DNA from: Candidatus Omnitrophota bacterium
GTDB taxonomy: Bacteria; Omnitrophota; Gorgyraeia; Aquiviventales; Aquiviventaceae
Length of the DNA: 64,000 nucleotides
Assembly (NCBI GenBank): GCA_016209275.1
Contig: JACQWM010000004.1
Location: forward strand, 42,243-106,242
Reading direction: 5' to 3'
A program made the position numbers and the translations under genes. Below, one piece after another: positions 17,394 through 39,884 of this stretch. Within the stretch, counting starts at the first letter, position 1. Each line of letters starts with the position of its first letter. Under the pieces are notes generated by a model, which saw nothing but the letters and a program-made list of their open reading frames with translations, was not told the origin of the DNA and did no database searches.

Positions 17394-17439
17394 GCGCGCG
17401 AGACGCACGCGACGTCCCATGCGATCTATCGCGGAGTTG

Positions 17440-19268: not shown

Positions 19269-20473
19269 CACCACGGATGATCGGGGTGGTGACGGTCGGC
19301 CGGTCAGATTACGGCATGGTCACGCCCATCCTGAAAGCGATACAGCGCGAACCGTCCTTGCGATTGCATCTGATCGTCTCCGGCGCGCATCTCTCGGCGG
19401 AATTCGGAGCGACCATCAACGACATCGAGCGCGATGGGGTGCCAATCGGCGACCGGGTGGAGATGCTGCGCCATGCCGATACGCCGGAGGGCATCGCCGA
19501 CTCGATCGGCCGAGGGGTCTCGGGATTCGCGCGCTCCTTTGCCGCCACACGGCCTGATGTGCTGCTCATTCTCGGCGACCGGGTGGAGATGTGCGCGGCG
19601 GCACTCGCGGCGCTGCCCATGACCATTCCAGTCGCGCATCTGCACGGAGGCGAGCTCACCGAGGGTGCGATCGATGATGCGTTGCGGCATGCCATGACGA
19701 AACTCAGCCACGTCCATTTTGTGGCCACCGACGCCTACGCCAAGCGCGTCATGCAGCTTGGCGAGGAGCCGTGGCGCGTCACACGCTGCGGCGCGCCCAG
19801 CTTGGATCACATCACAGACATCCCGCGGTTGAACCGGGAAGAGCTGCACGTGCAATTTGGGTTGCGACTGCGCGAGCCCATCCTCTTAGTCACGTGTCAT
19901 CCGGTGACGCTGGAATTCGAGCGGACCGAGTGGCACATCGCGCAGCTGCTGGAGGCACTGGCCGAGTGGACCGGCACCGTCGTCTTCACGGCGCCGAATG
20001 CGGATACGCACGGCCGGCTCATCCGGCGCGCGATTGAGGCGTTTCTCTCGGCCCATCCGCAGCATCAGATGATCGAGCACCTGGGACGCCAGGGATATGT
20101 CAGCGTGATGGCGCAAGCGTGCGCGATGGTTGGCAACTCGTCCAGCGGCCTCATCGAGGCGCCGTCCTTCGAGCTGCCGGTGGTCAACATCGGTTCGCGC
20201 CAGCAGGGACGGATCCGTGCGGCGAACGTGATTGATGTCGGCGAAACACGGCAGGACATTCTTGATGGCATCCGCCAAGCAACCGCTCCGGCCTTCCGAC
20301 AGCGGCTGCGCGGGCTGGTAAACCCGTACGACCAGGGCGGAGCGGCGGCAATGATTGTGCGGCGATTAAAGGAGATGCCGATCGACGCTCGGCTGCTCCG
20401 CAAACGGTTTGTGGATCTTCCCGCAGCTTCTGCGAGTCACCCTGAACCGACCGTGGTGTCGCATGCCGACTGA
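19265..20473 (+). CDS. neuC: UDP/GDP-N-acetylhexosamine 2-epimerase (hydrolysing), NeuC/LegG-like
   Basis: IGVVTVGRSDYG...HLHGGE motifs of hydrolysing 2-epimerases. Confidence 0.8.
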   Translation: MTPRMIGVVTVGRSDYGMVTPILKAIQREPSLRLHLIVSGAHLSAEFGATINDIERDGVPIGDRVEMLRHADTPEGIADSIGRGVSGFARSFAATRPDVLLILGDRVEMCAAALAALPMTIPVAHLHGGELTEGAIDDALRHAMTKLSHVHFVATDAYAKRVMQLGEEPWRVTRCGAPSLDHITDIPRLNREELHVQFGLRLREPILLVTCHPVTLEFERTEWHIAQLLEALAEWTGTVVFTAPNADTHGRLIRRAIEAFLSAHPQHQMIEHLGRQGYVSVMAQACAMVGNSSSGLIEAPSFELPVVNIGSRQQGRIRAANVIDVGETRQDILDGIRQATAPAFRQRLRGLVNPYDQGGAAAMIVRRLKEMPIDARLLRKRFVDLPAASASHPEPTVVSHAD

Positions 20474-21137
20474 TCAGCGATGCTGTCTGGTTCTTGGCGG
20501 CGGGGGGCATGCGCGGGTGGTGATCGACTGTCTGCTGGCGAGCGGCATCGCGAAGCCGCAGGGGATTCTTGATGCGAGTCCGCGGCTATGGGGGACTGAG
20601 GTGCTTGACGTGCCGATTCTCGGCGGGGATGAGATGATCGCTCAGCTCGCGCGCGAAGGTGTAACGCTGTTTATCGTCGGAGTGGGCGCGGTAGGTGACA
20701 ACGGACCGCGGCAGCGGCTCTTTGAGCTTGGGATCTCCCGCGGCCTCACCCCGTTGTCGGTGCGCCATCCGTCTGCCGTGTGCTCATCATCGGCGACGGT
20801 GGGAGCCGGCTCGCTGCTGTGCCCAGGGGCGGTGGTCAACGCGGGTGCGGTGATCGGCGGCAATGTCATTATCAACTCCGGCGCGATTGTGGAGCATGAG
20901 TGCGTGATCGAGGATCATGCGCACGTTGCCAGCGGGGCGGTCCTGGCCAGCGCGGTGCGTGTTGGCCGCGGCGCGCATGTGGGCGCAGGGGCTACGGTGC
21001 GCCAAGGCCTCTCCATTGGTGAAGCGGCGATCGTCGGTGCCGGGGCGGTTGTCGTCAAGCCGGTCGAGGCCGGGACGGTGGTTGTAGGGGTGCCGGCGCG
21101 CGAGCTCAAGCGCTTGTCGACGGCAGGAACCGGATGA
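20463..21137 (+). CDS. NeuD/PglD-family hexapeptide-repeat sugar N-acetyltransferase
   Basis: N-terminal Rossmann-like CLVLGGGGHARVV, followed by left-handed beta-helix hexapeptide repeats. Confidence 0.75.
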   Translation: MPTDQRCCLVLGGGGHARVVIDCLLASGIAKPQGILDASPRLWGTEVLDVPILGGDEMIAQLAREGVTLFIVGVGAVGDNGPRQRLFELGISRGLTPLSVRHPSAVCSSSATVGAGSLLCPGAVVNAGAVIGGNVIINSGAIVEHECVIEDHAHVASGAVLASAVRVGRGAHVGAGATVRQGLSIGEAAIVGAGAVVVKPVEAGTVVVGVPARELKRLSTAGTG

Positions 21138-22096
21138 GCATCGCGAACAGAAGACGTATTGGATCGAACGGAAACGAGATCCGTATGGCAGCGCTGCCCT
21201 CTGTGAGCGGCGCAGGAGGGTGGGAATCTGATGGTCTTTGCGAAGTGGAATCCTTCTATGATCTGATGTCCGAGGGCGCTGATTTCTCCTACTATCAGGA
21301 CCTCGGGCCAGGCAAATACGAAGAGCATTATTACAATCCGGATGGGGTCATCCTGTTTCCCGCGGCGCGGCAGCTGTATTGGTTTGGCGTGTCGCATCTC
21401 TCGGTTGGCACGCTTCGCCCTGGAGTTCGGGGCTATGTGCCGTGGAATCTCTGGAGAAAGAAATTCGTGTTTGCGTACCAGGGCAATCGCGTGAGCATCT
21501 TGCCGTACTCGTTCTGGCACGTGCCGGCGGGGGCGGCCGATCCCATGCGTGGGCAGTCCGCGGTGAAAGTCGCATACGCCGTCGGCCAGCGATTCCAACG
21601 GCTGTGCGATGTGCGCCCCGAAGAAGGAATGCCAGCGCAGGCGCTGGAGGCGATCGCCTCAGCGTGGAAGACGCATCGACGGCTCAAGATCGGGGTGACG
21701 ATCGGCCACAGCGTGGCGATGTTTGACGTCCGAACCGCATTTTTTGAGCGCGGGATTTTTTCGTTTTCTTCGAAGATCATCGTGATTCCTGATGCGGATG
21801 CCACGGCATTTTCCTGGGATCGCGCGTCGCTCGGCCACGTGTGCGTGTCAACGGACGGCACCTGCTCGATGGTGCAGGAAAAGCGCCCGCGGGCGGCCTG
21901 GAAGCATCAGCTCGCGGCGCTCTGTCCCGGGGTGATCGGCGCCCATCAGCTCCTTGAGCATTCTCCGCGGCCCGTTCAAGAATGGTGCCGCGCGATGCTG
22001 CGCGGTCCATCGCAAATGCTGCTGCGGTGGCTCGCGCCCTACGAGGTCAAGCAGCTCCGGTGCCCGTTTACGGTGTTTGTGAGCGAAAATACATGA
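21134..22096 (+). CDS. Hypothetical protein
   Basis: 320-aa ORF in operon context (ATGA coupling on both sides). No recognisable motif. Confidence 0.35.
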   Translation: MSIANRRRIGSNGNEIRMAALPSVSGAGGWESDGLCEVESFYDLMSEGADFSYYQDLGPGKYEEHYYNPDGVILFPAARQLYWFGVSHLSVGTLRPGVRGYVPWNLWRKKFVFAYQGNRVSILPYSFWHVPAGAADPMRGQSAVKVAYAVGQRFQRLCDVRPEEGMPAQALEAIASAWKTHRRLKIGVTIGHSVAMFDVRTAFFERGIFSFSSKIIVIPDADATAFSWDRASLGHVCVSTDGTCSMVQEKRPRAAWKHQLAALCPGVIGAHQLLEHSPRPVQEWCRAMLRGPSQMLLRWLAPYEVKQLRCPFTVFVSENT

Positions 22097-23655
22097 GCGT
22101 GCGGATCATCCCGCGTCTTGACATCAAAGGCCCCAACCTGGTGAAGGGCATTCACCTGGAGGGGCTGCGGGTGTTGGGACGGCCTGAACCGTTCGCGCGT
22201 TGCTACGCTGAGCACGGCGCGGATGAATTGTTGTTCATGGATGCGGTGGCCAGCTTGTATCAGCGTAACAGCCTGCTCGATTTGATTTCGCGGACCTCGC
22301 GGGAAATCTTCATCCCGCTGGCCGTCGGCGGCGGGCTGCGTTCGATTGACGATATCCGGATGGTCTTGCGCGCAGGCGCTGATAAAGTGTCGCTGAACAC
22401 GGCGGCCATCCAGAGGCCTGAGCTGATCCGTGAAGCCGCCCAGCGCTTCGGCAGCTCAACCATCGTCGTATCGATCGAGGCGATCAAGAGACCTGATGGG
22501 TCCTATGAGGCGTACACCGACAATGGACGGGAGCGCAGCGGGGTGGATGCGATGGCGTGGGCGCGCCGTGCGGCCGAGCTCGGAGCCGGGGAGCTGCTGG
22601 TGACCTCGATCGACCGCGAAGGCACGGGCAAAGGATTCGATGTGGAGTTGACGCGCGCCATCGCAGAATCGGCGCCGATTCCGGTGATTGCGTGCGGAGG
22701 AGCTGGCCAACTCGCCCATGTGGAGGAGGTTGTCGCGGCCGGGCGCGCGGATGCGGTCTGCCTGGCGTCGATGCTGCATTATGCCGATGGCGCTCCCCGA
22801 ACCGCGGAACATGTGGCGGCCCAGGAAGGCAACACCGAGTATCTGAAGAGCCGCCGAGGATTTTCCAAGGTGCGCGGAGCCACACTCGGGGAGATCAAAT
22901 CATTTCTTGCATCGAAACACGTCGAGTGCCGACCAGGGGACGGTGCTCTTTTTCGATGCTCGAAAAAGAGCACCGTCCCCGCACCGACCGTCGCGATCAT
23001 CGACTATGAGATGGGCAATCTCTTCAGCGTCAAACACGCCTGCGAGCATGCCGGCATGCAGGCGATCATCACCTCCTCGCGCGAGGCGATCCAGTCGGCC
23101 GATGCGATCATCCTGCCGGGTGTTGGAGCCTTCGGCGATGCGATGGCGGCCTTAAGACGGCTGGATCTGGTCAGCCTGCTGAAGGAATGCGCAGCGTCAG
23201 GCAAACCGTTGATGGGAATCTGTCTTGGCATGCAACTGCTGATGACGGAAAGCGAGGAGTTCGGGCGCCACCAAGGGCTGGGCATCATTGAGGGCGATGT
23301 GGTGCGACTCAGTCCAGGGGCTTATGACGGGCGGGCCATGAAAGTGCCCCAGGTGGGATGGAATCGGATTACGCCAACGGCCCCGGAAGCATGGCGCAAC
23401 AGCCTCTTGGCGGACACGCCGCCCGGGGCGTGGACGTATTTCGTCCATTCGTTTTATGCCCGTCCAGCCGATCCTGAGGTGATGGTGTCCACGACGCGCT
23501 ACGGTGATGCGACGTTTTGCTCAAGTCTTGCGCGGCGCAACGTGTTTGCCTGCCAATTCCATCCTGAGCGCAGCGGGCCGGACGGGCTGCGCATCTACCG
23601 CCAGTTCGCCGCGATGGCGCAACGCACGATGAAGGAGGTGGCTCCACATGCCTGA
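22093..23655 (+). CDS. Fused imidazole-glycerol-phosphate-synthase-like cyclase (HisF/WbuZ-like) and glutamine amidotransferase (HisH/WbuY-like)
   Basis: N-terminal half: IIPRLDIKGPNLVKG...AVGGG (HisF TIM barrel). C-terminal half: VAIIDYEMGNLFSV...CLGMQLL...FHPE (class I GATase triad). Confidence 0.8.
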   Translation: MSVRIIPRLDIKGPNLVKGIHLEGLRVLGRPEPFARCYAEHGADELLFMDAVASLYQRNSLLDLISRTSREIFIPLAVGGGLRSIDDIRMVLRAGADKVSLNTAAIQRPELIREAAQRFGSSTIVVSIEAIKRPDGSYEAYTDNGRERSGVDAMAWARRAAELGAGELLVTSIDREGTGKGFDVELTRAIAESAPIPVIACGGAGQLAHVEEVVAAGRADAVCLASMLHYADGAPRTAEHVAAQEGNTEYLKSRRGFSKVRGATLGEIKSFLASKHVECRPGDGALFRCSKKSTVPAPTVAIIDYEMGNLFSVKHACEHAGMQAIITSSREAIQSADAIILPGVGAFGDAMAALRRLDLVSLLKECAASGKPLMGICLGMQLLMTESEEFGRHQGLGIIEGDVVRLSPGAYDGRAMKVPQVGWNRITPTAPEAWRNSLLADTPPGAWTYFVHSFYARPADPEVMVSTTRYGDATFCSSLARRNVFACQFHPERSGPDGLRIYRQFAAMAQRTMKEVAPHA

Positions 23656-24877
23656 GGTGACGGCGTCCTTATCCGAAGGGCTCGAAGCCAAATACGGATT
23701 GCCCAGGGAGGTGGCGTTTTGCCGCCGCTGCGTGATGTCGAACCAGCGTCCGGCCTCCTCGGTGGAGTTCAAGCACGGGCTGGATCACCAGCATCGCACC
23801 TTGCATTTCGACGCGGATGGGGTGTGCGATGCATGCCGAGTGGCCGAGCACAAAGAGCAGATCAACTGGACGGCGCGCGAGACCGAGCTGCTGGCCCTCT
23901 TAGAGCAGCACCGGCGCAGCGACGGCGGCTACGACTGCATCGTGCCGGGCAGCGGCGGCAAGGACAGCGCGTACGCCGCGCATGTGCTGAAGTACAAGTA
24001 CGGCATGCATCCGCTGACCGTGACCTGGCCGCCGATCCTCTACACCGACATCGGCTGGAAAAATTTCCGCAACTGGGTTGAAGTCGGCGGATTCGATAAT
24101 GTGACCTTCAAACAGAATGGCCGCGCCCACCAGCTCTTGACGCGCTTGGCCATTGAGCACTTGCTCCACCCCTTTCAGACCTTCATCCTCGGGCAAAAGA
24201 ACCTCGCCCCAAAGATGGCGCTGCACTTCAACGTGCCCTTGATTTTTTTCGGCGAGAACGAGGCCGAGTACGGCAACCCGATCGCGGATAACGCCCAGTC
24301 GCTGCGCGATAAGTCGTACTTCGCGATGCAGCACCTCGGCGAGATCCGCCTCGGAGGGCTGTCGGTCGATGAGCTGATCGAGCGGCACGGGCTGGCACTC
24401 AATGAGCTGATGGCGTACCTGCCGGCGGATGCGGCGGCGTTGGCGCGCTCGAACATCGAAGTGCGCTACCTCGGCTACTACCTGAAGTGGACGCCGCAGG
24501 AGAGCTACTACTATGCGGTGGAGCACACCGGGTTTGAAGCCAACCCCGTCCGCACCGAGGGGACGTATAGCAAGTACAACAGCTTGGATGATAAAATCGA
24601 CGGCTTCCACTACTACACGACGTACATCAAGTTCGGCATCGGGCGTGCCACGTACGATGCCTCACAGGAGATTCGCAACAAGCATTTGACCCGCGAGGAA
24701 GGGGTGGGACTCGTGCGCCGTTTCGACGGGGAGTTTCCTGAGAAATATTTCCGCGAGGTCATGGAGTATCTTGGCATGAAGCCTGAGCGATTCATGGAGT
24801 TGTGCGATCAGTTCCGCTCGCCCCATTTGTGGAAACAGGAGGGCGGGCAGTGGAAGCTTCGGCACCAGGTGGCTTGA
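23648..24877 (+). CDS. N-acetyl sugar amidotransferase (WbuX/PseA-like PP-loop ATPase)
   Basis: PP-loop GSGGKDS motif. A CRRC N-terminal Zn-ribbon-like motif. ~409 aa, adjacent to the HisH/HisF homologues. Confidence 0.75.
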   Translation: MPEVTASLSEGLEAKYGLPREVAFCRRCVMSNQRPASSVEFKHGLDHQHRTLHFDADGVCDACRVAEHKEQINWTARETELLALLEQHRRSDGGYDCIVPGSGGKDSAYAAHVLKYKYGMHPLTVTWPPILYTDIGWKNFRNWVEVGGFDNVTFKQNGRAHQLLTRLAIEHLLHPFQTFILGQKNLAPKMALHFNVPLIFFGENEAEYGNPIADNAQSLRDKSYFAMQHLGEIRLGGLSVDELIERHGLALNELMAYLPADAAALARSNIEVRYLGYYLKWTPQESYYYAVEHTGFEANPVRTEGTYSKYNSLDDKIDGFHYYTTYIKFGIGRATYDASQEIRNKHLTREEGVGLVRRFDGEFPEKYFREVMEYLGMKPERFMELCDQFRSPHLWKQEGGQWKLRHQVA

Positions 24878-24890
24878 GGGAGGAGAGCGC

Positions 24891-25979
24891 ATGGACCACG
24901 ATGTGAGCGCGCTATGCGTCGACCGCCATCGCGCCTTCGGCGAGGCGATCGCGCAGATGGACCGCAATCGCCGGGGGATTGTCCTGGTGGTGGATGAGCA
25001 TGAGCAGCTGGTGGGCACGATCACCGACGGTGATGTGCGTCGGGCGATCCTGAGCCGGATTGACCTTCGCGAGCCGGTGACAGCGCTGTTGGAGACAAAA
25101 TCCAGGACGCCGTATGCCCGGCCGATTACCGCGCCCATCGGGCAAGATCCAGCGACCTACCTGGAGCTCCTCACCCAGCACCGGATTTTGCACCTGCCGC
25201 TGCTCGATGCCCGCCAGCGGGTGGCCGGGCTCGCGACGATGGAGCAGTTTCTCCAGCACCAGCCGCTGGCGCTTCACGCCATCGTCATGGCCGGAGGGCA
25301 GGGCAGCCGGTTGACGCCGCTGACTGAGGATCTGCCGAAGCCGATGCTGCCGGTGGGCGACCGGCCGCTGATGGAAATCGTCATCCAGCAATTGCGCGCG
25401 GCGGGTATCACGCGCGTCAAAGTGTCCACCCATCATAAACCGGAAAAGATCGAGGAGCATTTCGGCGATGGGCAGGCCTTCGGGGTGCGCCTGTCGTATG
25501 TGGCCGAGGACCGGCCGTTGGGCACCGCCGGAGCGTTGGGGCTGGTGGAGGTGCCTGACGAAACCACCCTGGTGATCAACGGCGACATTCTCACGCAAGT
25601 CGATTTCCGGGCGATGTTGGCGTATCACCGCGAGCACCAAGCGGATTTGACCGTGGCCGTCCGCCATTACGATGTTGAAGTGCCGTATGGCGTGGTGGAG
25701 TGCGAAGGGGCCATGGTCCGCCGGCTGACCGAGAAGCCGGTCAGCCGCCTGTTCGTCAATGCCGGGATTTATCTGCTGGAACCGTCGGTCTATCGCTTCA
25801 TTCCGAATGGCGAGCGGTTTGACATGACGGATCTGATCCAGCGGCTGCTGGACCACCAGCGGCCGGTGGCCAGTTTTCCGATCCGGGAATATTGGCTGGA
25901 CATCGGCCAGCATGCGGATTATCAGTTGGCGCAGGAGCATGCCAAAACGCTGAATCTGGCAAAGGAGGCTGCCGAATGA
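24891..25979 (+). CDS. CBS-domain-containing sugar-phosphate nucleotidyltransferase (PtmE-like)
   Basis: N-terminal CBS pair (VGTITDGDVRRAI...), then the NTP-transferase motif MAGGQGSRLTPLT...KPML. Confidence 0.7.
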   Translation: MDHDVSALCVDRHRAFGEAIAQMDRNRRGIVLVVDEHEQLVGTITDGDVRRAILSRIDLREPVTALLETKSRTPYARPITAPIGQDPATYLELLTQHRILHLPLLDARQRVAGLATMEQFLQHQPLALHAIVMAGGQGSRLTPLTEDLPKPMLPVGDRPLMEIVIQQLRAAGITRVKVSTHHKPEKIEEHFGDGQAFGVRLSYVAEDRPLGTAGALGLVEVPDETTLVINGDILTQVDFRAMLAYHREHQADLTVAVRHYDVEVPYGVVECEGAMVRRLTEKPVSRLFVNAGIYLLEPSVYRFIPNGERFDMTDLIQRLLDHQRPVASFPIREYWLDIGQHADYQLAQEHAKTLNLAKEAAE

Positions 25980-26959
25980 GCTGGCATGGCAAACGGGTCT
26001 TGGTGACCGGAGCCGGAGGGTTTATCGGCAGCCATCTGGCCGAGAAGCTGACGGCCGCTGGGGCCAAGACGCGCGCCCTGGTGCATTACCGCAGCGACGG
26101 CTCCTGGGGCTGGCTGGACCGTTCGCCGATGAAGGAACAGATCGAGATCGTCGCCGGAGACGTGCGGGATGCCGAGAGTGTGCAGCAGGCCATGCAGGGC
26201 ATCGATATCGCGTTTCACCTGGCCGCGCTGATCGGCATTCCGTATTCGTACCACGCGCCGAGCTCCTACATCCATACCAATGTCGAGGGCACGCTGCATG
26301 TGCTGCAAGCGGCGCGCACGCATGGCATCGAACGCGTCGTCCATACGTCCACGAGCGAAGTGTATGGGACGGCGCGGTACGTGCCGATTGATGAAGCCCA
26401 TCCGCTGCACGCCCAGTCTCCCTATGCGGCCAGCAAAATCGGGGCGGATGCCTTGGCGGAATCGTTCGCTCATGCGTTTGGATTACCGGTCGTCATCGTG
26501 CGGCCCTTCAACACCTTCGGGCCTCGGCAATCCGCTCGGGCGGTCATCCCGACGATCATGACGCAATGCCTGACGGATGGCGTGATTCGCTTAGGCCATC
26601 TGCACCCCACGCGAGATCTGAATTATGTCGACAACACAGTCGAGGGGTATCTGCGGGCGGCGGAGGCTCCTGCGGCCATCGGGCGCACGATCAATCTCGG
26701 CTCCGGCCGGGAAATCAGCATCGGGGATCTGGCGGCAGTGATTGCCGGTCTGGCCGATCGGCCGATCCGGATCGAGGAAGACGAGTCCCGTCTTCGTCCG
26801 CCGCAGAGCGAGGTCGACCGGTTGCTGGCCAAGAATGCGTTGGCCCGCGAAGTACTCGGCTGGGAGCCGTCGATCACGCTTGAGGAGGGGTTGCGAATCA
26901 CCATGGCATGGATGCGAGAACACCTTGATGGATACCGCGCAGGCCTCTACGCCATCTAA
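25976..26959 (+). CDS. NAD-dependent NDP-sugar 4,6-dehydratase/epimerase (LegB-like)
   Basis: VLVTGAGGFIGSHL Rossmann motif and the SYxxxK region (YAASK). ATGA coupling. Confidence 0.7.
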   Translation: MSWHGKRVLVTGAGGFIGSHLAEKLTAAGAKTRALVHYRSDGSWGWLDRSPMKEQIEIVAGDVRDAESVQQAMQGIDIAFHLAALIGIPYSYHAPSSYIHTNVEGTLHVLQAARTHGIERVVHTSTSEVYGTARYVPIDEAHPLHAQSPYAASKIGADALAESFAHAFGLPVVIVRPFNTFGPRQSARAVIPTIMTQCLTDGVIRLGHLHPTRDLNYVDNTVEGYLRAAEAPAAIGRTINLGSGREISIGDLAAVIAGLADRPIRIEEDESRLRPPQSEVDRLLAKNALAREVLGWEPSITLEEGLRITMAWMREHLDGYRAGLYAI

Positions 26960-28133
26960 CCGCCAGGCATCCCAGGCATCGGTGCCGTTGAGCGCGCCGC
27001 TCTTCCAGGGGCGGGAATGGGAGTATCTCAAGACCTGCCTGGACAGCGGGTGGGTCTCCTCGGCCGGCCCGTTTGTGGAGCGGTTTGAGCGCGAGGTGGC
27101 GGCGTATGTAGGAAGCCCTGAGGCGGTGGCCGTCGTCAACGGGACCGCGGGGTTGCATGTGGCTCTGCGCATGGTCGGCGTTGAGCCGGAGGATGAAGTG
27201 CTGGTTTCCGATGTGACGTTTATTGCGCCGGCGAATGCGATCCGGTATTGCCAGGCCCACCCGGTGTTCATTGATGCCGAGGCCGACACGTGGCAGATGG
27301 ATGTGGAGAAGGCGGAGCGGTTTTTGCGCACGGCATGCCAGCGCCGTCGGAAGGCGTGCTACAACCAGCGTACCGGCCGGCGCGTGCGCGCTATCGTGCC
27401 GGTGCACATCCTGGGACTAGCCTGCGAGATGGATCGGCTGATGGCGCTCGCACGCGAGTATCACCTGCAGGTCGTCGAAGATGCGGCCGAAGCGATGGGC
27501 GTGCGGTATCGCGGAACCCATGTCGGCACGTTTGGCGATGCCGGAGTGTTAAGTTTCAACGGCAACAAAATCATCACTGCCGGAGGCGGCGGCATGGTCC
27601 TCACACGCAGTCGGCGCCATGCGGCCGCTGCTCGGTATCTGACCACGCAGGCCAAAGATGATGCGCTGGAGTATGTGCATCACCACATCGGATACAATTA
27701 CCGGCTGCCGAATATCCAGGCGGCGCTTGGGCTGGCGCAACTGGAGCAGCTGGATGGGTTCATCGCGAAAAAGCGCGCCATCGCCGCGGTGTATGCCGAG
27801 GCGCTGGGGACGATCCATGGCCTGACCTTGATGCCGGCACCGCCGCACACGGAGCCGACCTATTGGCTCTACACCGTGCTGCTCGCACCCGGGACCACGA
27901 TTGCGCGGCGCCAGGCGGTCATCCGAGCGCTGCGCGCCGCCGGGATCGAGGCCCGGCCGTTGTGGCATCCGCTGCACGCCTTGCGGCCCTACCGGCGGTG
28001 CCAGCGGGTGGCGATCGAATACGCGCCTCGGTTATACGCGCGGGCGGTGAGCCTGCCATCCGGGGTGGGCTTGGGCGGCGAGACGCTCGCTGAGTGCGTG
28101 GCCACCGTCAGAGACACCTTGTTAGCCTCATGA
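26928..28133 (+). CDS. DegT-family PLP-dependent sugar aminotransferase (second copy)
   Basis: Lys-region SFNGNKIITAGGGGM and the typical DegT N-terminus. Start uncertain (overlaps upstream by ~30 nt). Confidence 0.7.
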   Translation: MDTAQASTPSNRQASQASVPLSAPLFQGREWEYLKTCLDSGWVSSAGPFVERFEREVAAYVGSPEAVAVVNGTAGLHVALRMVGVEPEDEVLVSDVTFIAPANAIRYCQAHPVFIDAEADTWQMDVEKAERFLRTACQRRRKACYNQRTGRRVRAIVPVHILGLACEMDRLMALAREYHLQVVEDAAEAMGVRYRGTHVGTFGDAGVLSFNGNKIITAGGGGMVLTRSRRHAAAARYLTTQAKDDALEYVHHHIGYNYRLPNIQAALGLAQLEQLDGFIAKKRAIAAVYAEALGTIHGLTLMPAPPHTEPTYWLYTVLLAPGTTIARRQAVIRALRAAGIEARPLWHPLHALRPYRRCQRVAIEYAPRLYARAVSLPSGVGLGGETLAECVATVRDTLLAS

Positions 28134-30211
28134 CATATTTCGTTGAACATTTGACGTTTCGAACATGGGGTGTTGCCATGCTGCCTCGGCTGCTCATGGC
28201 GCGGCTGCGAGGACAGCGCAGGCCGGTGCGCTGCTACGTGATTGAAGGATCGCGGCTCGCACTGCAGGCGGCTCGCGTCACTGGGCGCCTGATCGGTATC
28301 ACGCCGGAGCGGCTTCAATTCCGCCTCATGGAGATTCGCGATGACGCCGGGCTGTCGATCCGCGTGCGGCTGGCCTATCGAGATTTGGCCGAGGTGCAAG
28401 CCGATGCGATGCGCGAGCCGGATTTCATTGCGTGCCAACAGCGCGCTCAAGGGACGGATCGCTTGCTGCCCTACCTGGCCAAGGGGTTGGCGGCCATTGA
28501 TCGGGCCGAGCGGGGAACCCTCTGGCGAAGGATGCTCACCACTCAGATCTGCGCGCGGCATATTTCCAGCGATGGGCAATCTCACGAGACACCGGTCGTG
28601 GTGATGGAGCGGCAGCCGTGGCATGGCGCGATTGAGCGCTATGCCAATCGGCACGGGCTTCGCGTCATTCCGGTTACCGCCGGCTGGGATCTCAATCGGC
28701 GGCTGCGCCGCCTGGCGCGCCGGCTCATCGATCGCATTCCTCGACCGCGGCCAACACAGGCGGTGACTGCCGGCCGAGTCGCCCCAACAGCTCGGCCGCG
28801 GATCGGGCTAACCTTCTATGGCCAGTTGAACCTGAAGCATCCGGGGCGCTACTCGGATCTGTTTTTCCTGCAGCAGTCCGCGATCCGCGGCAGCGACACG
28901 GTCCTGTTCTTTGAGTTTCCGCAGGATCCGCTTGATATGAAGAAGGCGGCTGAGTTGGCCGAGGAGGGCATTGAGGCGGTGGTGCTCAATCCGCGCGCGG
29001 CCACACTCCCCAAGGCGCGCGTGTGGAGTCCAAGACGGCGTGTGAGCGTGAAACAGCCTCGGGGGCGCAGCTGCGAGTCAGCATGGCTGGCGGAGCAAGC
29101 CGAGTCCTATCACGCGCTGCGGGCGTCGTGGCGCGAACTGTGCGCAGCACACCGCGTGAAGATCTACCTGACCTGGTACAAATATGACGGGGTCCATGCG
29201 GCGATCGCGGATGCGCTGCGGGATCTTGGCGGCATCCTCGCGGTCTATCAGCGGGCGTATGAAGGTCTTGCCTCGGCAGAGACGACGGTGAATGCTGATA
29301 TCATGTTCGGTTTCTCCACGATGGGTGCGGAGGTGGAGCAGCGCTCCGGCTCGACGATCGCCTACCATGTCACGACCGGCTACGTCGGCGATCATCGCGT
29401 TTCCCTGTGGCGCGGAGAGGCGATGAAGATCCGGCAGTCGCTGCAACAGCGCGGGGCGCGGCAGATCCTCGCCTTCGCCGATGAATCGACGAAAGATGAC
29501 GCGCGGTGGGCTCCTGGGCATCCGCAGGCCCAGCGCGACTATGCCTTTCTGCTTGAGCGCGTGCTGAATGAGCCGTGGCTTGGATTGGTGGTCAAGCCGA
29601 AGCGGCCGGTGAAGCTGCGGCCGCGGCTTGGGGCCATCGCCCAGCTCTTAGCGCGCGCCGAGGCCACGGGTCGCTGCATCGTGCTCGAAGGAGGGATTCT
29701 TCACGGCTCGGTTCCGCCGGCCGCCGCGGCACTGGCCGCCGATGTGATGATCCACGGCCACCTCTATGCCGCCACCGCCGGGGTGGAGTCTGCCTTAGCC
29801 GGCGTGCCCACGCTGTTGCTTGATCACGAGGGGTGGGCGGCAAGCCCCTTGTATCGATTAGGCGTGGGGCAGGTGGTGTTTCATGACTGGGAGTCCTTGT
29901 GGAAGCGGTGCCGTGAGCACTGGCATCAGCCGGGTGGTGTGCCGGGATTTGGCGACTGGTCTTCGATGCTTGATGAGCTGGATCCGTTTCGAGACGGCCG
30001 GGCGGCCGAGCGGCTGAGCACGTATCTTCAGTGGCTGCTCGAAGGATTTGCCGCCGGAGCCAGCCGCGAGACGGTCATGGCTGATGCCGCGCAGCGCTAT
30101 GCCTTGCAATGGGGCCACGAGATGGTGACCTCTGTTAACGCGGCCGGCTCAATTCGATATCAGATATCAAACCGCGGTTTGATATCTGATATCGCCTTGC
30201 AGGCGAGATGA
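28130..30211 (+). CDS. Large hypothetical protein (~693 aa), possible GT-B/capsule-synthesis-like transferase
   Basis: No canonical motifs. The C-terminal Rossmann-like segment resembles GT-B or CDP-glycerol transferase folds. ATGA coupling with the upstream DegT. Confidence 0.4.
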   Translation: MTYFVEHLTFRTWGVAMLPRLLMARLRGQRRPVRCYVIEGSRLALQAARVTGRLIGITPERLQFRLMEIRDDAGLSIRVRLAYRDLAEVQADAMREPDFIACQQRAQGTDRLLPYLAKGLAAIDRAERGTLWRRMLTTQICARHISSDGQSHETPVVVMERQPWHGAIERYANRHGLRVIPVTAGWDLNRRLRRLARRLIDRIPRPRPTQAVTAGRVAPTARPRIGLTFYGQLNLKHPGRYSDLFFLQQSAIRGSDTVLFFEFPQDPLDMKKAAELAEEGIEAVVLNPRAATLPKARVWSPRRRVSVKQPRGRSCESAWLAEQAESYHALRASWRELCAAHRVKIYLTWYKYDGVHAAIADALRDLGGILAVYQRAYEGLASAETTVNADIMFGFSTMGAEVEQRSGSTIAYHVTTGYVGDHRVSLWRGEAMKIRQSLQQRGARQILAFADESTKDDARWAPGHPQAQRDYAFLLERVLNEPWLGLVVKPKRPVKLRPRLGAIAQLLARAEATGRCIVLEGGILHGSVPPAAAALAADVMIHGHLYAATAGVESALAGVPTLLLDHEGWAASPLYRLGVGQVVFHDWESLWKRCREHWHQPGGVPGFGDWSSMLDELDPFRDGRAAERLSTYLQWLLEGFAAGASRETVMADAAQRYALQWGHEMVTSVNAAGSIRYQISNRGLISDIALQAR
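30155..30194. repeat. Perfect 40-bp palindrome CGATATCAGATATCAAACCG|CGGTTTGATATCTGATATCG
   Basis: Read directly from the sequence. Lies in the last codons of the 28130-30211 gene, 14 nt before the next ATG. Confidence 0.9.
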
Positions 30212-32322
30212 CGCAGCAGCGGCGCGGGGCGGTTTTTTTGGATCGCGATGGCACCATCGCGCGATACCGCGAGTACTGCCGATCGCCTGAGGAGTTTGAT
30301 CTGCTGCCTGGGGTGGGCGAGGCGATCCGCAAACTGAATGACGCGAACGTGCCGGTGGTGGTGATGACGAATCAGTCCGCGGTCGGCCGAGGATGGCTCA
30401 CGATGGAGACGTTGTCCTCGATCCATGAAAAGATGCAGCAGGAGCTGGCTCGCGTCGGCGCGCGGATCGATGCGATTTATGTCTGCCCGCATCATCCGGA
30501 TGACGGCTGTGCGTGCCGAAAACCTGGAACGCACATGCTGACCAAGGCGGCGGATGAGCTGGGGCTCTCACTGACTGAGTCGTATGTGATCGGCGATCGA
30601 TGGCAGGATGTCCAAACCGGCCGCGGGGCCGGCAGCCGGGCGATCCTTGTCAAGAGCGGTCATCCGGCTGAGCCGGCCAATGGGACCACGGCAGATTATG
30701 AAGCCCCAACACTTGGCGACGCGGTTGATTGGCTCTTGCAGCAGCGCCAGCAGCAGACCGCCTCGGCTCAGACCGACTGGTCCACGCGGTACCGCGCGTT
30801 AGCCGAGCGACTCTATGAAGTTCGTCGAGCGTGCCCGCGGTTTGCGGTCTTGGGCACGTCCACGCTGCACCCGCGGCATTCGCTGCCTGCGGATCAGGTG
30901 GAGCTGGCGGATCGGCCACAAGAAGACGCGCCTTGGCCGATTCCCTCATGGCCGCGGATCATCACCCACGCCCTGAAATTGGCCGTCTACGCGGCACAAG
31001 AAACAGCCAATCTCGTGTGGATTTCCTGGCATGGCCGAGGCATGTTGCGCCGCCTGTCGCAGCAGCCAGCCACCGTGGTGATGAAGACCTGGTGTTTTGG
31101 TCCGCAGTCGTTTGATGCCGCGCGTGACTTTTATTACGGCACCGTACCGCATCAGCTGCAGGCGAAAGGGATCTCCACGGTCGTGTTGTGCGGCGACACC
31201 CGAGAGCGATGCGACCTCGCCTTCCTCACAGCATTCTTGCGGGAGGGCGCGGTTCGCTACGTGCCCGAATGGCTGTTGCTGCCCTGGTGGGCGCCGATGA
31301 TCACCCTGTGCCGGCAGCTTTGGGGAGCGTTGTCGTTGCGCCGCGTGGCACAACGAGCCGCCTCTTCGTCGTTGGCCGCCGTGGCTGCGACGGCCTGCGT
31401 GAATGCTTTGACACCAATTACCATGCGTAATCTGCTGCAATATCACATCGCGCGGGCGGCCGTGAAACGATGGAACGCCGGCGCGTTTGTCACGTTGTAC
31501 GAAGGACAACCCTGGGAACAACCGGCGTGGCATGGAGCCAGAGCCGCGAATCCCTCATGCCGCCTCGTCGGCTATCAGCACACCGTCATCATGCCGCATT
31601 CCTTGGCTGTCCGCCGCCCCCAGTCGATTGGGAAAGAAATTGCAGCACCCGACATCGTCCTGTGCCTTGGAGAAACCACTCGGCGAATGATCGCCCCAGG
31701 ACATCAGCCGCACGGCAATCGCCTCATCACGTTTGGCACATGCCGGCGGCCAGCTTCCCGCGGTTCGGCTCGCGGCCCGCGGCCGGATCTTCGGACGGTC
31801 CTCGTCTTGCCTGAGGGGTTCCAGAGCGAGGCGCGCCTGCTCTTTCGTTTCGCCATGAACGTCGCAGCGATCATGCCAGACCACAGGTTCATTTTCCGCT
31901 CGCACCCAGTGCTGCCGTTTTCTCAAGTCCGGCCGCATCTTCAGCGCGATCCAGCACAGATGACCAATATCGAGATTTCAACGCGCAAGACGATCGAAGA
32001 AGATTTCAGCCGGGCTTCCGTCGTGCTGTACCGAGGATCCTCGACGGTCTTATATGCGGTGCTGCACGGTGTGAAGCCGATCTACGTGCATGACGCGGCA
32101 GCCCCTGATGTGGATCCATTGTTTGAGCTCAGCGCGTGGCGTGAGGGGGTCGAGGCGGCCACCCAGGCGCATGATCGGCTCGCGGCGTATGCCACCGGTG
32201 CCGTGCCGTCAGCGGCCGCCGAATGGCTATCGGCCGCCGCCTATGTCGATCAGTACGTGATACCGGTGGATGAGGCGGCGATTGATCGGTTCATTGACGC
32301 CTTCCGCGGAGCAAGGACGTGA
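30208..32322 (+). CDS. GmhB-like HAD-IIIA phosphatase domain fused to a ~520-aa uncharacterised C-terminal domain
   Basis: N-terminus VFLDRDGTI...VMTNQSAVGRG...AIYVCPHHPDDGCACRKPG (second GmhB signature in the window). The remainder is unrecognised but ends in a GT-B-like Rossmann segment. Confidence 0.55.
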   Translation: MTQQRRGAVFLDRDGTIARYREYCRSPEEFDLLPGVGEAIRKLNDANVPVVVMTNQSAVGRGWLTMETLSSIHEKMQQELARVGARIDAIYVCPHHPDDGCACRKPGTHMLTKAADELGLSLTESYVIGDRWQDVQTGRGAGSRAILVKSGHPAEPANGTTADYEAPTLGDAVDWLLQQRQQQTASAQTDWSTRYRALAERLYEVRRACPRFAVLGTSTLHPRHSLPADQVELADRPQEDAPWPIPSWPRIITHALKLAVYAAQETANLVWISWHGRGMLRRLSQQPATVVMKTWCFGPQSFDAARDFYYGTVPHQLQAKGISTVVLCGDTRERCDLAFLTAFLREGAVRYVPEWLLLPWWAPMITLCRQLWGALSLRRVAQRAASSSLAAVAATACVNALTPITMRNLLQYHIARAAVKRWNAGAFVTLYEGQPWEQPAWHGARAANPSCRLVGYQHTVIMPHSLAVRRPQSIGKEIAAPDIVLCLGETTRRMIAPGHQPHGNRLITFGTCRRPASRGSARGPRPDLRTVLVLPEGFQSEARLLFRFAMNVAAIMPDHRFIFRSHPVLPFSQVRPHLQRDPAQMTNIEISTRKTIEEDFSRASVVLYRGSSTVLYAVLHGVKPIYVHDAAAPDVDPLFELSAWREGVEAATQAHDRLAAYATGAVPSAAAEWLSAAAYVDQYVIPVDEAAIDRFIDAFRGART

Positions 32323-37316: not shown

Positions 37317-39148
37317 TGCCAACACGGATCCTGGGGATTTCAGCGTATTACCATGACTCGGCGGCGTGCCTGCTGAGCGATGGGGATATTGTGGCCGCGG
37401 CCCAGGAGGAGCGCTTCACGCGCAAGAAGCATGACGCGCGCTTTCCTTCGCGCGCCGTGGAGTTCTGTTTGACGCAGGCTGGGATCACGATGAACGATCT
37501 TGACCTCGTCGGCTTCTATGAGAAGCCGCTGGTGAAGTTCGATCGGCTCTTAGAAACGTATCTGGCGTACGCCCCACGCGGGTGGCGATCGTTTCTGACG
37601 TCGATGCCGGTGTGGTTGAGCGAGAAGCTGTGGCTTCCCGACCTCATCGGCAGGGAGCTGGGGTATTCGGGGAAGATCCTCTTCGGAGACCACCATGAGT
37701 CCCATGCGGCCTCGGCGTTTTACCCCTCGCCGTTTGATGAGGCGGCGATTCTGACCATGGATGCGGTCGGGGAATGGGCCACGTCATCGTACGGCTACGG
37801 CAAGGGGAAGGACATCACCCTGCTTGGCGAAATGCGCTTTCCGCATTCGTTGGGGATGCTGTACTCGGCGTTCACCTATTTCACCGGCTTTAAGGTGAAC
37901 TCCGGGGAGTATAAGGTGATGGGGCTGGCCCCCTACGGCGAGCCGAGGTACGCCTCGCGGATCCGGGATCATCTGGTGCAGATTCATGACGACGGCAGTC
38001 TGACCCTCAACATGGACTACTTTAATTATTGCACCGGCTTGACCATGACCAACCGGAACTTCGAGCGGCTCTTCGGCGGGCCGCCGCGCGAGCCGGAAAG
38101 CCCGATCACGCAGCGTGAGATGGATCTGGCCAGGTCGATTCAAGAAGTGACCGAAGAGATCATGCTGAAGATGGCCCGGCACGTGCACCGGGAAACCGGA
38201 TTGTCATCGCTGTGTTTGGCTGGCGGTGTTGCGCTCAACTGTGTCGGCAACGGCCGGATCTTGCGCGAAGGGCCGTTTGAGCAGATCTGGGTGCAGCCTG
38301 CGGCCGGCGATGCCGGCGGGGCTCTCGGCGTGGCTTTGGCGTTGTGGCATCGATCCCTGGGACAGCCACGGCGCGCTCGCATCGGTCAAGCGTTCGCCGA
38401 TGATATGCGCGGCAGTCTCTTAGGGCCGGCATTTTCTGATGAAGTGATCAGCGCCTGGTTGAGCCAGGAAGATGTGGCCGCGACCCGGGTGGATCGCGAT
38501 GAGCTGCCCCGCCGCGTCGCAGGGTTGATCGCCGAGGGCAAGGTGGTCGGCTTGTTTCAATCCCGGATGGAATTCGGGCCCAGAGCGCTTGGAGCCCGCT
38601 CGATCCTCGGGGATCCGCGCTCGCCGCAGATGCAATCGCTGATGAACCTGAAGATCAAGTTCCGGGAGTCATTCAGGCCCTTCGCCCCGACGGTGCTGCG
38701 GGAGCGGGTGAGCGACTGGTTTGATCTGGATGGCGAGAGCCCCTACATGCTCCTGGTGGCGGATGTCTCCGAGAAACGCCGCCGGCCGATGGCGGATGCG
38801 GAACAATCGCTGTGGGGAATGAAGAAGCTCAACGTGGTCCGCTCTGAGATTCCGGCCGTGACCCACGTCGATTATTCGGCGCGCATCCAGACGATCCGCC
38901 GGGAGGCGAACCCGCTGTTCTATGATATTATCCAGGCGTTCGATTGGCTCACCGGCTGTCCCGTCGTCATCAACACCTCGTTTAACGTCCGCGGCGAGCC
39001 GATGGTGTGCACGCCGCAGGACGCCTATCGCTGTTTCATGCGCACACAGATGGATGCGCTGGTCCTGGAGAGCTTTCTGATCGAAAAATCTCAGCAGAAG
39101 CCGGTGGCGGAGGATGCCTCATGGCAGAAGGAGTTTCAACTCGATTAG
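37316..39148 (+). CDS. NodU/CmcH-family O-carbamoyltransferase
   Basis: ILGISAYYHDSAACLL...EERFTRKKHD N-terminal carbamoyltransferase signature. ~610 aa. Confidence 0.8.
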   Translation: MPTRILGISAYYHDSAACLLSDGDIVAAAQEERFTRKKHDARFPSRAVEFCLTQAGITMNDLDLVGFYEKPLVKFDRLLETYLAYAPRGWRSFLTSMPVWLSEKLWLPDLIGRELGYSGKILFGDHHESHAASAFYPSPFDEAAILTMDAVGEWATSSYGYGKGKDITLLGEMRFPHSLGMLYSAFTYFTGFKVNSGEYKVMGLAPYGEPRYASRIRDHLVQIHDDGSLTLNMDYFNYCTGLTMTNRNFERLFGGPPREPESPITQREMDLARSIQEVTEEIMLKMARHVHRETGLSSLCLAGGVALNCVGNGRILREGPFEQIWVQPAAGDAGGALGVALALWHRSLGQPRRARIGQAFADDMRGSLLGPAFSDEVISAWLSQEDVAATRVDRDELPRRVAGLIAEGKVVGLFQSRMEFGPRALGARSILGDPRSPQMQSLMNLKIKFRESFRPFAPTVLRERVSDWFDLDGESPYMLLVADVSEKRRRPMADAEQSLWGMKKLNVVRSEIPAVTHVDYSARIQTIRREANPLFYDIIQAFDWLTGCPVVINTSFNVRGEPMVCTPQDAYRCFMRTQMDALVLESFLIEKSQQKPVAEDASWQKEFQLD

Positions 39149-39164
39149 CGAAAGGAGTCAGGGC

Positions 39165-39884
39165 ATGAGAACGCTGACCGGAATTTTCTTGGACACGGGC
39201 AAGCTGGAGGAAGTCCGCACCTACCATGAGCTTGGCATCATCCGCGGAGTCACGACCAACCCGACGATCCTCTGCAAGGAGGGGTTGACCGGCGGCTGGC
39301 CAGCCATTGAGCGGCGGTGCAAGCAGCTCGCGGCGCTGATTGATCCCTTGCCGCTGTCGGTCGAGGTGACCACGAACGATCCGGATGAGATGCTCGCGCA
39401 AGCGCTCCGTTTCAGATCCTGGGCGGAGAACGTCAACGTGAAAGTCACGATCCACGGCCCTGACGGCGGCACCGAGAACCTGAAACTCGTGCATCGGCTG
39501 GAGACCGAGGAAGATATCCGAGTGAATGTCACGGCGATGATGAGCGCGCAGCAGTGCCTGCTGGCCGCGCAAGCCGGGGCGACGTATGTCTCGCTCTTCG
39601 GCGGGCGGGTCAACAACATGGGCTACGACTCGCGATCGGAAGTGCGCCGCCTGCGGCAATTGCTGGATGCCTTCGAGAGTCCTGCCAAGATCATCGTGGG
39701 CTCAACCAGGGAAGTGCTCAACATCATTGAGTGGTTCGAGGCTGGGGCCGACATCGTCACGGCCGTGCCGCAGCTGCTGGAGGGCATGCTGGTGCATCCG
39801 TATAGCAAGGAAACGGTCCGCCAATTCCTGGCGGATGGCGCGAAGCTGCATCAGGCCATCCCGGAGCCGGCGATTGCGACATGA
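39165..39884 (+). CDS. Transaldolase / fructose-6-phosphate aldolase family (short type)
   Basis: FLDTGKLEEV...GVTTNPTIL motifs. An AAAGGAG Shine-Dalgarno lies 8 nt upstream. Confidence 0.75.
   Translation: MRTLTGIFLDTGKLEEVRTYHELGIIRGVTTNPTILCKEGLTGGWPAIERRCKQLAALIDPLPLSVEVTTNDPDEMLAQALRFRSWAENVNVKVTIHGPDGGTENLKLVHRLETEEDIRVNVTAMMSAQQCLLAAQAGATYVSLFGGRVNNMGYDSRSEVRRLRQLLDAFESPAKIIVGSTREVLNIIEWFEAGADIVTAVPQLLEGMLVHPYSKETVRQFLADGAKLHQAIPEPAIAT

Follow-up and report, generated by a model that had tools for sequence, protein, structure and literature searches.

The locus described here raises the question of what two adjacent genes, each encoding a protein of about 700 residues, contribute to a glycan gene cluster, and whether the phosphatase domain at the N-terminus of the second protein is coupled to whatever the rest of that protein does. 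The genes lie in a stretch of 64,000 nucleotides (positions 1-64000, hereafter the window) of contig JACQWM010000004.1 from a Candidatus Omnitrophota bacterium. Both open reading frames (ORFs) were confirmed at the places where a preliminary description, made from the DNA letters, had put them: protein A (693 residues) starts with an ATG, the mechanical ORF opening at a GTG at 28094, and protein B (704 residues) is encoded by 30208-32322, also on the plus strand. Entries 100% identical to both exist at NCBI for a Candidatus Omnitrophica metagenome-assembled genome, where A is called 'hypothetical protein HY737_00845' and B 'HAD-IIIA family hydrolase'. Among the functions proposed in the preliminary description was the transfer of ulosonic acids, and this is the role that fold, motifs and synteny support best. 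We put at about 50% the probability that A and B are unrelated and unclassified glycosyltransferases with a GT-B fold, each dedicated to a different 2-ulosonic acid activated with cytidine monophosphate (CMP), and that the HAD domain of B is an accessory phosphatase acting on a precursor. The fold and synteny results are solid, and it is from these, together with the conservation of motifs and the rarity of the fusion, that we infer the transferase activity, the identities of the donors and the role of the HAD domain.

The first line of evidence is structural. AlphaFold2 models were obtained for A and for the part of B that follows the HAD domain (residues 185-704), with predicted local distance difference test values of 91.5 and 94.3, respectively. 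According to these models, A and B are complete two-domain GT-B proteins, in which two Rossmann-like alpha/beta domains are separated by an inter-domain cleft. The core of A spans approximately residues 340-660 and is preceded by an extra N-terminal alpha/beta region (approximately residues 1-340); the core of B is preceded by a helical extension of about 100 residues (approximately residues 185-290). The preliminary description, which had seen in the last ~520 residues of B only a terminal Rossmann-like segment, was therefore right about a transferase-like fold but underestimated its extent, because about 420 of these 520 residues form a complete two-domain GT-B fold. Neither protein is close to any solved family. 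In comparisons of A with solved structures, the scores were 13.1 for the CMP-Kdo-binding domain of WaaA (Kdo, 3-deoxy-D-manno-octulosonate), 12.5 for TarL, 12.0 for TagF, 10.9 for Cps3D and 10.7 for Bcs3. No hydrophobic segment above threshold is present in A or B, so that we rejected the possibility that either is a membrane protein; the lack of transmembrane segments is consistent with cytoplasmic Leloir-type enzymes. The GT-B fold is common to glycosyltransferases and to 2-epimerases/hydrolases.

At the sequence level, both proteins represent families of their own. A has 78 relatives, all of about 700 residues and devoid of Pfam domains, and residues 185-704 of B have 138 close relatives, nearly all of them stand-alone proteins of about 530 residues that likewise lack a Pfam domain. 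A profile search with B among 1.84 billion cluster representatives retrieved 3,525 relatives at E<=1e-3 and 1,015 at E<=1e-30, corresponding to a family of about 1,000-3,500 clusters at 50% identity that spans at least nine phyla and has no Pfam model. Pfam recognised nothing in A or in residues 185-704 of B, and no family recurred at E<=1 among 70 members of the A family or 73 of the B family, the only matches being isolated ones to single members (e.g. Glyco_transf_4 at 0.016 and LpxB at 0.31). With no recurrent family, cryptic membership of A or B in Capsule_synth, Glyphos_transf, Epimerase_2 or Glycos_transf_1 was rejected at this level. Likewise, there was no Pfam match to Capsule_synth/KpsS-KpsC (PF05159) or to TagF/TagB (PF04464), and no close structural match to KpsC or WbbB. 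A few B-family proteins carry additional domains. Among the B relatives, a HAD domain is present in five (B itself counted), an N-terminal GT2 domain in three and a polysaccharide deacetylase domain in one. The GT2-B fusions (P0072, P0080, P0119 and L024) have about 830-850 residues, the deacetylase fusion is P0098, and in other loci these fusion partners are encoded by separate neighbours of B. One B-family protein of 1,026 residues (P0211) has two matching stretches and is apparently a tandem B-B.

A common C-terminal character had been noticed in A, B and a third protein, encoded at the far end of the window (62608-63765). BLASTP among the three found nothing, and hhalign gave probabilities of 0.3% for A versus B, 0.3% for the 62608 family versus B and 5.9% for the 62608 family versus A, so that we rejected the view that they are paralogues sharing a C-terminal domain. 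Profile searches of the three families against the sequences of the PDB yielded only noise. The weak profile alignments pair the same topological elements, namely a strand ending in 'HP' and the strand-helix that follows it, and the shared character is thus that of a GT-B donor domain rather than detectable homology. What remains of the earlier observation is the GT-B topology of A and B and the HP motif of B and the 62608 protein; A, although also GT-B, is unrelated in sequence to the other two.

In both families, the invariant residues are specific to the family and lie at strand ends of the two Rossmann domains. In the B family they are E432-G433...E437 (from nucleotide 31501), Q457-H458 (nucleotides 31576-31581), and P535-E536-G537, R564-x-H566-P567 (31897-31908) and Y608-R-G-S611-S612 (32029-32043) further on; H566-P567, in the C-terminal donor domain, is kept in 73 of 73 members. 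The invariants of the A family are D451-E452 (29480-29485) and K489-P490-K491 (29594-29602), and K489-P490 ends the strand that is topologically equivalent to the one ending in HP in B. When the 73 B-family members were scanned singly against NCBIfam, 26 matched TIGR04326 (best E 1.6e-10), 26 matched TIGR04396 and eight matched NF046086, the BFO_1060 family. BFO_1060 is the strain 92A2 orthologue of Tanf_01245/TFUB4_00887, the pseudaminic/legionaminic acid transferases of Tannerella forsythia, which have been implicated by gene deletion and are described as predicted GT-B/TagB-like proteins containing D/E-D/E-G and HP motifs (PMC5420450). In sialyltransferases, the histidine of HP donates a proton to the departing CMP phosphate, and this residue is structurally conserved in WbbB, a Kdo transferase (PMC9587256). 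As for the D/E-D/E-G motif, the invariant tripeptides Y-E-G (residues 431-433, N-domain) and P-E-G (residues 535-537, C-domain) of B do not contain two acidic residues in a row, and in A the pair D451-E452 is not followed by glycine.

These motifs bear on the most serious rival explanation, which is that B, and possibly A, is a biosynthetic enzyme with a GT-B fold that hydrolyses or 2-epimerises a nucleotide sugar, comparable to NeuC, LegG or PseG, the freed sugar being passed on to the HpcH aldolase encoded downstream for joining to pyruvate. Its weight comes from the common fold of these enzymes and from their high ranks in structural comparisons. Nevertheless, we consider it unlikely. Firstly, no member of the A or B family matches Pfam Epimerase_2 even at E=1. 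Secondly, the HP and SS motifs typical of CMP-dependent transferases are present in B, and relatives of B show weak matches to the Tannerella family of nonulosonic acid transferases (PMC5420450). Thirdly, B is repeatedly fused to, or located beside, GT2 transferases. Finally, the legionaminic acid pathway of the window already has an Epimerase_2 enzyme of its own (Table 1).

The second main line of evidence is genomic context. We analysed 54 loci, of which 49 are B-family loci from GTDB species genomes and five were found by exact-protein look-up; their six-frame ORFs were searched with all proteins of the window, and a gene was counted when its match lay within 10 kb of the anchor gene. The loci span Omnitrophota, Planctomycetia, Acidobacteriota, Elusimicrobiota, Deltaproteobacteria, Nitrospirae, a bacterium of the Candidate Phyla Radiation, Gammaproteobacteria and Bacteroidota, the last including the cultured Sediminibacterium roseum, whose strain SYL130 has the orthologues at 859960-881375 of NZ_JAACJS010000002.1. 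A and B are each coupled to a different CMP-sugar module: A to a legionaminic-acid-type pathway encoded upstream, and B to a set of downstream genes that we call module 2. The canonical order is [HisFH WbuX PtmE LegB LegC]-A-(nothing / HAD / RmlD-GT2)-B-GFO-MT23-SIS-TAL-HpcH-SDR-SDR-KdsB-like-2-Hacid_dh (abbreviations as in Table 1). In at least 15 loci the gene directly 3' of LegC is A, and L004 shows this arrangement in the absence of B. The genes most tightly linked to B are GFO, MT23 and SIS, and the module-2 genes at 39114..46798 accompany B in 24-34 of the 54 loci, including phyla that lack A. In Gammaproteobacteria and Bacteroidota, A is absent and the module is rearranged to SDR SDR KdsB-like GFO MT23 HpcH 2-Hacid_dh B SIS. 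Among the 25 B loci without A, 13 have a KdsB-like gene and no NeuB within 10 kb. Thus, since A follows LegC even without B, and B accompanies module 2 without A, the partners of A are the legionaminic-type genes and the partner of B is module 2. GT2 genes are located directly 5' of B in about 14 loci, and this adjacency, like the GT2-B fusions, supports a role at the stage of glycan assembly. In the window, start and stop codons overlap by four bases at the LegC/A (ATGA), A/B (ATGA) and B/next gene (GTGA) junctions, which is typical of translational coupling.

The coupling of A also bears on another possibility, namely that A is a TagF/TarL-like polymerase that moves alditol-phosphate or sugar-phosphate from a cytidine diphosphate (CDP) or other nucleotide donor to a teichoic-acid-like or phosphodiester-linked polymer. 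We regard this as improbable, because A is strictly coupled to legionaminic-acid genes, because none of 70 A-family members matches Pfam Glyphos_transf, and because TagF ranks only 30th in the Foldseek list for A, behind generic GT-B proteins. Moreover, Pfam and/or NCBIfam scans of all long plus-strand ORFs of the window, about 57 gene calls, revealed no recognisable family for CDP-glycerol or CDP-ribitol synthesis, such as TagD- or TarI/TarJ-like proteins.

We now turn to the HAD domain. Residues 7-180 of B, the sole part recognised by Pfam, are GmhB-like HAD-IIIA. Against NCBIfam they score 137.6 bits with TIGR01656 (cutoff 84) and 105.2 bits with TIGR01662 (cutoff 44.6), models that stand for the histidinol-phosphatase-type domain and HAD-IIIA, and they stay below the cutoffs of the equivalogs for GmhB, the D-glycero-D-manno-heptose-1,7-bisphosphate 7-phosphatase, NF006506 (166 versus 178), TIGR00213 (113 versus 149.6) and NF050049 (89 versus 250); judged by these scores, the domain is GmhB-like with no substrate assignment. 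Its motifs DRDGT, TNQS, CPHHPDDGCACRKP and GDRWQD are invariant in four other fused homologues. In all five fused proteins this holds for D12-R-D14-G-T16, T54-N-Q-S57, K105 and G129-D130...D134, which represent HAD motifs I-IV (the first with nucleophile and acid/base), and also for the Zn loop C93-P-H95...C101-A-C103, a pattern of the GmhB/HisB-N group. The assignment of the N-terminus to GmhB/HAD-IIIA in the preliminary description is thus borne out, with complete catalytic motifs: D12/D14 (nucleotides 30241-30249) and D130/D134 are all present.

The proposal that the fusion couples dephosphorylation to transfer fared less well. Orthologues of the HAD domain (E 1e-70 to 1e-80) were always found between A and B and nowhere else, either as a stand-alone gene (L001, L006, L038 and L040) or fused to B (the window, L009 with P0032, P0011, P0015 and P0016). 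The fused proteins are mutually 50-56% identical and have linkers that vary in length and sequence; as four others share the architecture, an assembly or frameshift artefact was rejected. The domain is located near B in five of the 54 loci (~10%), is fused in five of the 120 B-family proteins listed, and is absent from ~95% of B-family proteins. The fusion is therefore genuine and shared by several species, but only a minority of B proteins have it. Because the HAD is a separate gene or absent elsewhere, an obligatory coupling of dephosphorylation and transfer is unlikely, and the fusion is most readily understood as a Rosetta-stone event that joined two neighbouring genes of a common pathway, rather than as a new catalytic principle. 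The strict adjacency of HAD and B would also fit a two-step synthase/phosphatase, following the logic of trehalose-6-phosphate, sucrose-6-phosphate and mannosyl-3-phosphoglycerate synthesis: B would glycosylate a phosphorylated small-molecule acceptor (e.g. heptose 7-phosphate or phosphoglycerate), and the HAD domain would then dephosphorylate the product and make the step irreversible. However, the rarity of HAD near B implies that the phosphatase is dispensable for the function of the B family, or is supplied in trans. In addition, the N-terminal position of the domain and its IIIA Zn-loop subclass are unlike those of trehalose-6-phosphate synthase/phosphatase (TPS/TPP) and sucrose-phosphate synthase/phosphatase (SPS/SPP), and in structural scores these do not surpass dozens of other GT-B enzymes. 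We find this explanation quite unlikely.

If A and B are indeed ulosonic acid transferases, encoded in one long operon for the synthesis of what is most likely a surface glycan, A would most likely use a CMP-linked nonulosonic acid of the legionaminic acid type as donor and add this sugar to the glycan chain. B would most likely transfer what module 2 makes, namely a 3-deoxy-2-ulosonic acid resembling Kdo and possibly methylated or redox-tailored. The R-x-H-P and S-S motifs of B suggest that H566 would protonate the leaving CMP phosphate and that S611/S612 would bind the CMP phosphate, in the manner of sialyltransferase-like GT-B enzymes; candidates for the base that acts on the acceptor hydroxyl are E432 and H458. 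If module 2 works like the Kdo pathway, an aldose phosphate would come from the SIS isomerase and the FSA-type aldolase, and its condensation with pyruvate by the HpcH aldolase would give a 3-deoxy-2-ulosonate phosphate; tailoring of the sugar would fall to the oxidoreductases and methyltransferases of module 2, and its activation to the KdsB paralogue. The GmhB-type HAD, where present, probably removes the terminal phosphate of the module-2 precursor, a role similar to that of KdsC. Module 2 was rejected as a canonical Kdo pathway, because a KdsA-like (DAHP_synth_1) gene accompanies it in only three of the 54 loci. In these three (L005, at 3375-5614, L019 and L043), genes for the KdsA-like protein, a CBS-domain protein and a conserved, unassigned 315-residue protein lie directly upstream of HpcH-SDR-SDR-KdsB-like-B, and this variant of module 2 may start from Kdo-8-phosphate. 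A sulfotransferase gene is located next to B in L005.

A more ambitious version, which we hold only tentatively, is that the B family is the dedicated transferase of an undescribed and widespread pathway, in which a pyruvate-dependent class II HpcH aldolase replaces the phosphoenolpyruvate-dependent synthases NeuB/KdsA, the sugar phosphate comes from a GmhA-like isomerase together with an FSA-type aldolase, a GmhB-type HAD dephosphorylates, and a KdsB paralogue activates a Kdo-like or higher-carbon 2-ulosonic acid with CMP; A would then be a second new family, for legionaminic-acid derivatives.

Several observations weigh against the transferase reading and have to be set beside the evidence for it. 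The A family lacks the HP motif, having the invariant K-P-K instead, and has no link in hidden Markov model searches to any named family. All NCBIfam matches of the B family and of the 62608 protein are far below the curated cutoffs, which indicates remote relatedness and not membership; for B of the window itself, the match to TIGR04396, in the HP-to-SS region, has an E of 0.27 and 10.3 bits versus a cutoff of 125. The HAD domain of B is of the GmhB type and not of the KdsC type. Finally, in two loci of Terriglobia (L031 and L035), B lies beside NeuB genes and there is no KdsB-like gene within 10 kb, so that the assignment of the donor may vary.

Table 1. Features of the window around proteins A and B, with the number of loci (of 54) in which a match was found. 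SDR, short-chain dehydrogenase/reductase; NTP, nucleoside triphosphate.
Feature	Coordinates	Strand	Basis or remark	Loci
Legionaminic-acid-type nonulosonic acid pathway	16644..28133	+	Pfam, NCBIfam	
PseF/LegF-like cytidylyltransferase	16644-	+	followed by SDR	
NeuB	18207-	+	Leg-type pathway	
Hydrolysing 2-epimerase (Epimerase_2)	19265-20473	+	followed by PglD-like acetyltransferase	
ORF without Pfam match	21134-22096	+	within Leg-type pathway	
HisF-HisH fusion (WbuY/WbuZ-type amidotransferase), 557 residues	21982-23655	+	followed by WbuX amidotransferase	
CBS-NTP-transferase (PtmE-like), 4,6-dehydratase (LegB), LegC aminotransferase	upstream of A (LegC 26742-)	+	Pfam, NCBIfam	
Protein A, putative transferase for legionaminic-acid-type sugar	28130..30211	+	orphan GT-B-fold enzyme, 693 residues	29
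HAD-IIIA phosphatase domain, GmhB-type (B residues 1-184)	30208..30759	+	NCBIfam, Pfam	5
C-terminal module of B (residues 185-704), putative transferase for CMP-activated sugar acid of downstream module	30760..32322	+	helical extension and GT-B fold	
GFO/IDH/MocA oxidoreductase (GFO)	32319-33356	+	Pfam, NCBIfam	43
Methyltransf_23-like protein (MT23)	33347-34330	+	Pfam, NCBIfam	41
SIS/GmhA-like sugar-phosphate isomerase (SIS)	34327-34959	+	Pfam, NCBIfam	38
Methyltransferase, SxtJ-like protein, carbamoyltransferase	between SIS and TAL	+	Pfam, NCBIfam	
FSA/transaldolase (TAL)	39114-39884	+	Pfam	27
FkbM methyltransferase, GDSL esterase, methyltransferase	between 39884 and 42745	+	Pfam	
HpcH/GarL-like pyruvate aldolase (HpcH)	42745-43599	+	Pfam	34
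Two SDRs	43586-45087	+	Pfam	
KdsB-like cytidylyltransferase	45051-45860	+	NF003952 (KdsB subfamily), 208.3 bits versus cutoff 193	25
2-Hydroxyacid dehydrogenase (2-Hacid_dh)	45857-46798	+	Pfam	
Third protein, 385 residues, invariant H249-P250	62608..63765	+	weak NCBIfam matches; family of 12	

Some further features of the two modules deserve mention. The HisF-like and HisH-like parts of the fused amidotransferase are separate ORF matches in several related loci (e.g. L002, L011 and L013). The region 35684-39148, downstream of SIS in the window, encodes an SxtJ-like small membrane protein, an unassigned protein of 354 residues and a NodU/CmcH-type carbamoyltransferase of 653 residues; the set recurs by B-GFO-MT23-SIS in several Omnitrophota loci (L001, L006, L008 and L040) and suggests O-carbamoylation of the glycan or sugar. 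In a related Omnitrophota locus (L002/L003, at 18-21.6 kb), module 2 is followed by genes for a phosphopantetheinyl transferase, a small ORF of the size of an acyl carrier protein (ACP), a hexapeptide acyltransferase and an FkbH-like protein. Such a set of genes would be expected where glyceryl-ACP is formed and, by analogy with Tannerella Pse5Am7Gra, could serve N-glyceroylation of a sugar.

The window as a whole is an unusually long co-directional glycan supercluster. All its credible genes are on the plus strand, four-nucleotide start/stop overlaps are frequent, and the GC skew is positive in every 2-kb bin but 54001-56000 (0.000). It contains at least two NeuB genes, two CTP_transf_3 cytidylyltransferases, at least five methyltransferases and two radical S-adenosylmethionine (radical-SAM) enzymes. 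A tblastn search with A and B against annotated plasmids gave no match. The preliminary description counted the HAD domain of B as the second of its kind in the window, which is correct: the first, 43% identical, is the C-terminal half of the product of 18-1061, in which an NTP-transferase similar to mannose-1-phosphate guanylyltransferase (residues 3-153) is fused to a GmhB-type HAD (residues 182-326; NF006506, 164 bits). Two HAD-IIIA domains, fused independently and to different partners, are thus encoded in the window. With the GHMP kinase gene downstream (2497-3618), 18-1061 looks like a GDP-heptose route (an HddC-GmhB fusion and HddA). The only multi-pass membrane protein among the ~57 window genes is the 811-residue product of 51171-53606, with about eight hydrophobic transmembrane-like segments (six N-terminal and two C-terminal) around TPR repeats at about residues 315-380; a possible function is that of a GT-C or O-antigen-ligase-like enzyme passing on the completed glycan. 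Neither a flippase nor an ABC transporter nor an initiating phosphoglycosyltransferase was seen among the genes of the window.

The third protein named above, encoded at 62608-63765, matches NCBIfam BFO_1060 (E 0.0016) and TIGR04396 (E 0.0068) with its residues 222-315; its score in this group is 17.6 bits versus a cutoff of 200. Judging from its sequence, it is likely to be a further GT-B-type ulosonic acid transferase. It is the last gene of the region 56858-63765, which also encodes a DegT aminotransferase, an epimerase/dehydratase, a GT2 protein, a shorter NeuB (59622-60524) and, next to this second NeuB, a 699-residue B12-binding radical-SAM protein resembling KedN5-like C-methyltransferases (60521-62620). 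The region looks like a second nonulosonic acid block, in which NeuB and the cobalamin-dependent radical-SAM C-methyltransferase could produce a C-methylated, carbon-extended nonulosonic acid. Higher-carbon ulosonic acids in CMP-activated form, reported from Magnetospirillum (bioRxiv 10.64898/2026.04.20.719630), offer a comparison for this block.

What do these results add? In contrast to the well-mapped biosynthetic pathways, few transferases for bacterial nonulosonic and ulosonic acids are known (PMC5420450). For the A and B families there is now a fold, together with conserved motifs that are candidates for a catalytic role and a genomic partner that is consistent, and this makes them concrete candidates for new glycosyltransferase families. 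The conserved ten-gene module around a pyruvate aldolase and a KdsB paralogue, present from Omnitrophota to Bacteroidota, may make an undescribed acidic sugar. If our reading is true, the known chemistry and enzymology of bacterial surface glycans would be widened, and thousands of 'hypothetical proteins' could be annotated. The main use of the HAD fusion is as a Rosetta-stone clue, which hints at a GmhB-type phosphatase in the pathway to which B belongs. Our searches on these families and their chemistry found no literature describing the A family, the B family or module 2. Two families without a Pfam model, the fusion variant with a GmhB-type HAD, and the module of HpcH aldolase and KdsB paralogue beside B thus appear to be undescribed. 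On the other hand, GT-B transferases for CMP-ulosonic acids are as such already a known kind, to which belong the Tannerella enzymes, the sialyltransferases of GT38, GT52 and GT80 and, for Kdo, WaaA (GT30), WbbB (GT99) and KpsC/KpsS (GT107).

Comparison with systems that are already understood places both proteins and their modules. GT-B enzymes linked to a HAD phosphatase of the same pathway are known from trehalose-6-phosphate and sucrose-phosphate synthase/phosphatase and from compatible-solute synthesis, such as bifunctional mannosylglycerate synthase. Hence, of the earlier claim that the combination in B is undescribed, the particular HAD pairing stands, but the principle does not. TPS/TPP and SPS/SPP differ from B in domain order and HAD subclass: the HAD of B is N-terminal, of the GmhB-type IIIA with a Zn loop, absent in ~90-95% of the family, and derived from a neighbouring stand-alone gene. 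The polymerases TagF/TarL, Cps3D and Bcs3 are likewise different, with 8-12% identity over the structural alignments and no Glyphos_transf signal.

The closest parallels are found among the Tannerella transferases Tanf_01245/TFUB4_00887 and the related, uncharacterised families TIGR04396 and TIGR04326 ('surface carbohydrate biosynthesis protein'), which share with B the GT-B prediction and the HP motif. The genes of the Tannerella enzymes adjoin those for CMP-pseudaminic/legionaminic acid biosynthesis (PMC5420450), just as A follows LegC and B lies near the KdsB-like module or NeuB. About one-third of the B-family members repeatedly, if weakly, match BFO_1060, TIGR04396 or TIGR04326, a link that A does not have. 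However, B is larger (about 520 residues with its helical N-terminal extension of 100 residues, versus about 445), and its preferred genomic partner is the KdsB-like module and not a NeuB module. As a pathway, module 2 together with HAD-B invites comparison with the Kdo route KdsD-KdsA-KdsC-KdsB-WaaA, since it offers one candidate for each step: the SIS isomerase (KdsD-like), the aldolase (KdsA), the HAD-IIIA domain (KdsC), the KdsB-like protein and the GT-B enzyme (WaaA). The two nevertheless differ in several respects. The condensing enzyme of the Kdo pathway is a phosphoenolpyruvate-dependent DAHP_synth_1 protein, whereas that of module 2 is a class II pyruvate aldolase (HpcH/GarL-like); the isomerase and the phosphatase of module 2 are GmhA-like and GmhB-like, in place of KdsD and KdsC; and, beyond the steps of the Kdo pathway, module 2 has four extra oxidoreductases and methyltransferases that are conserved.

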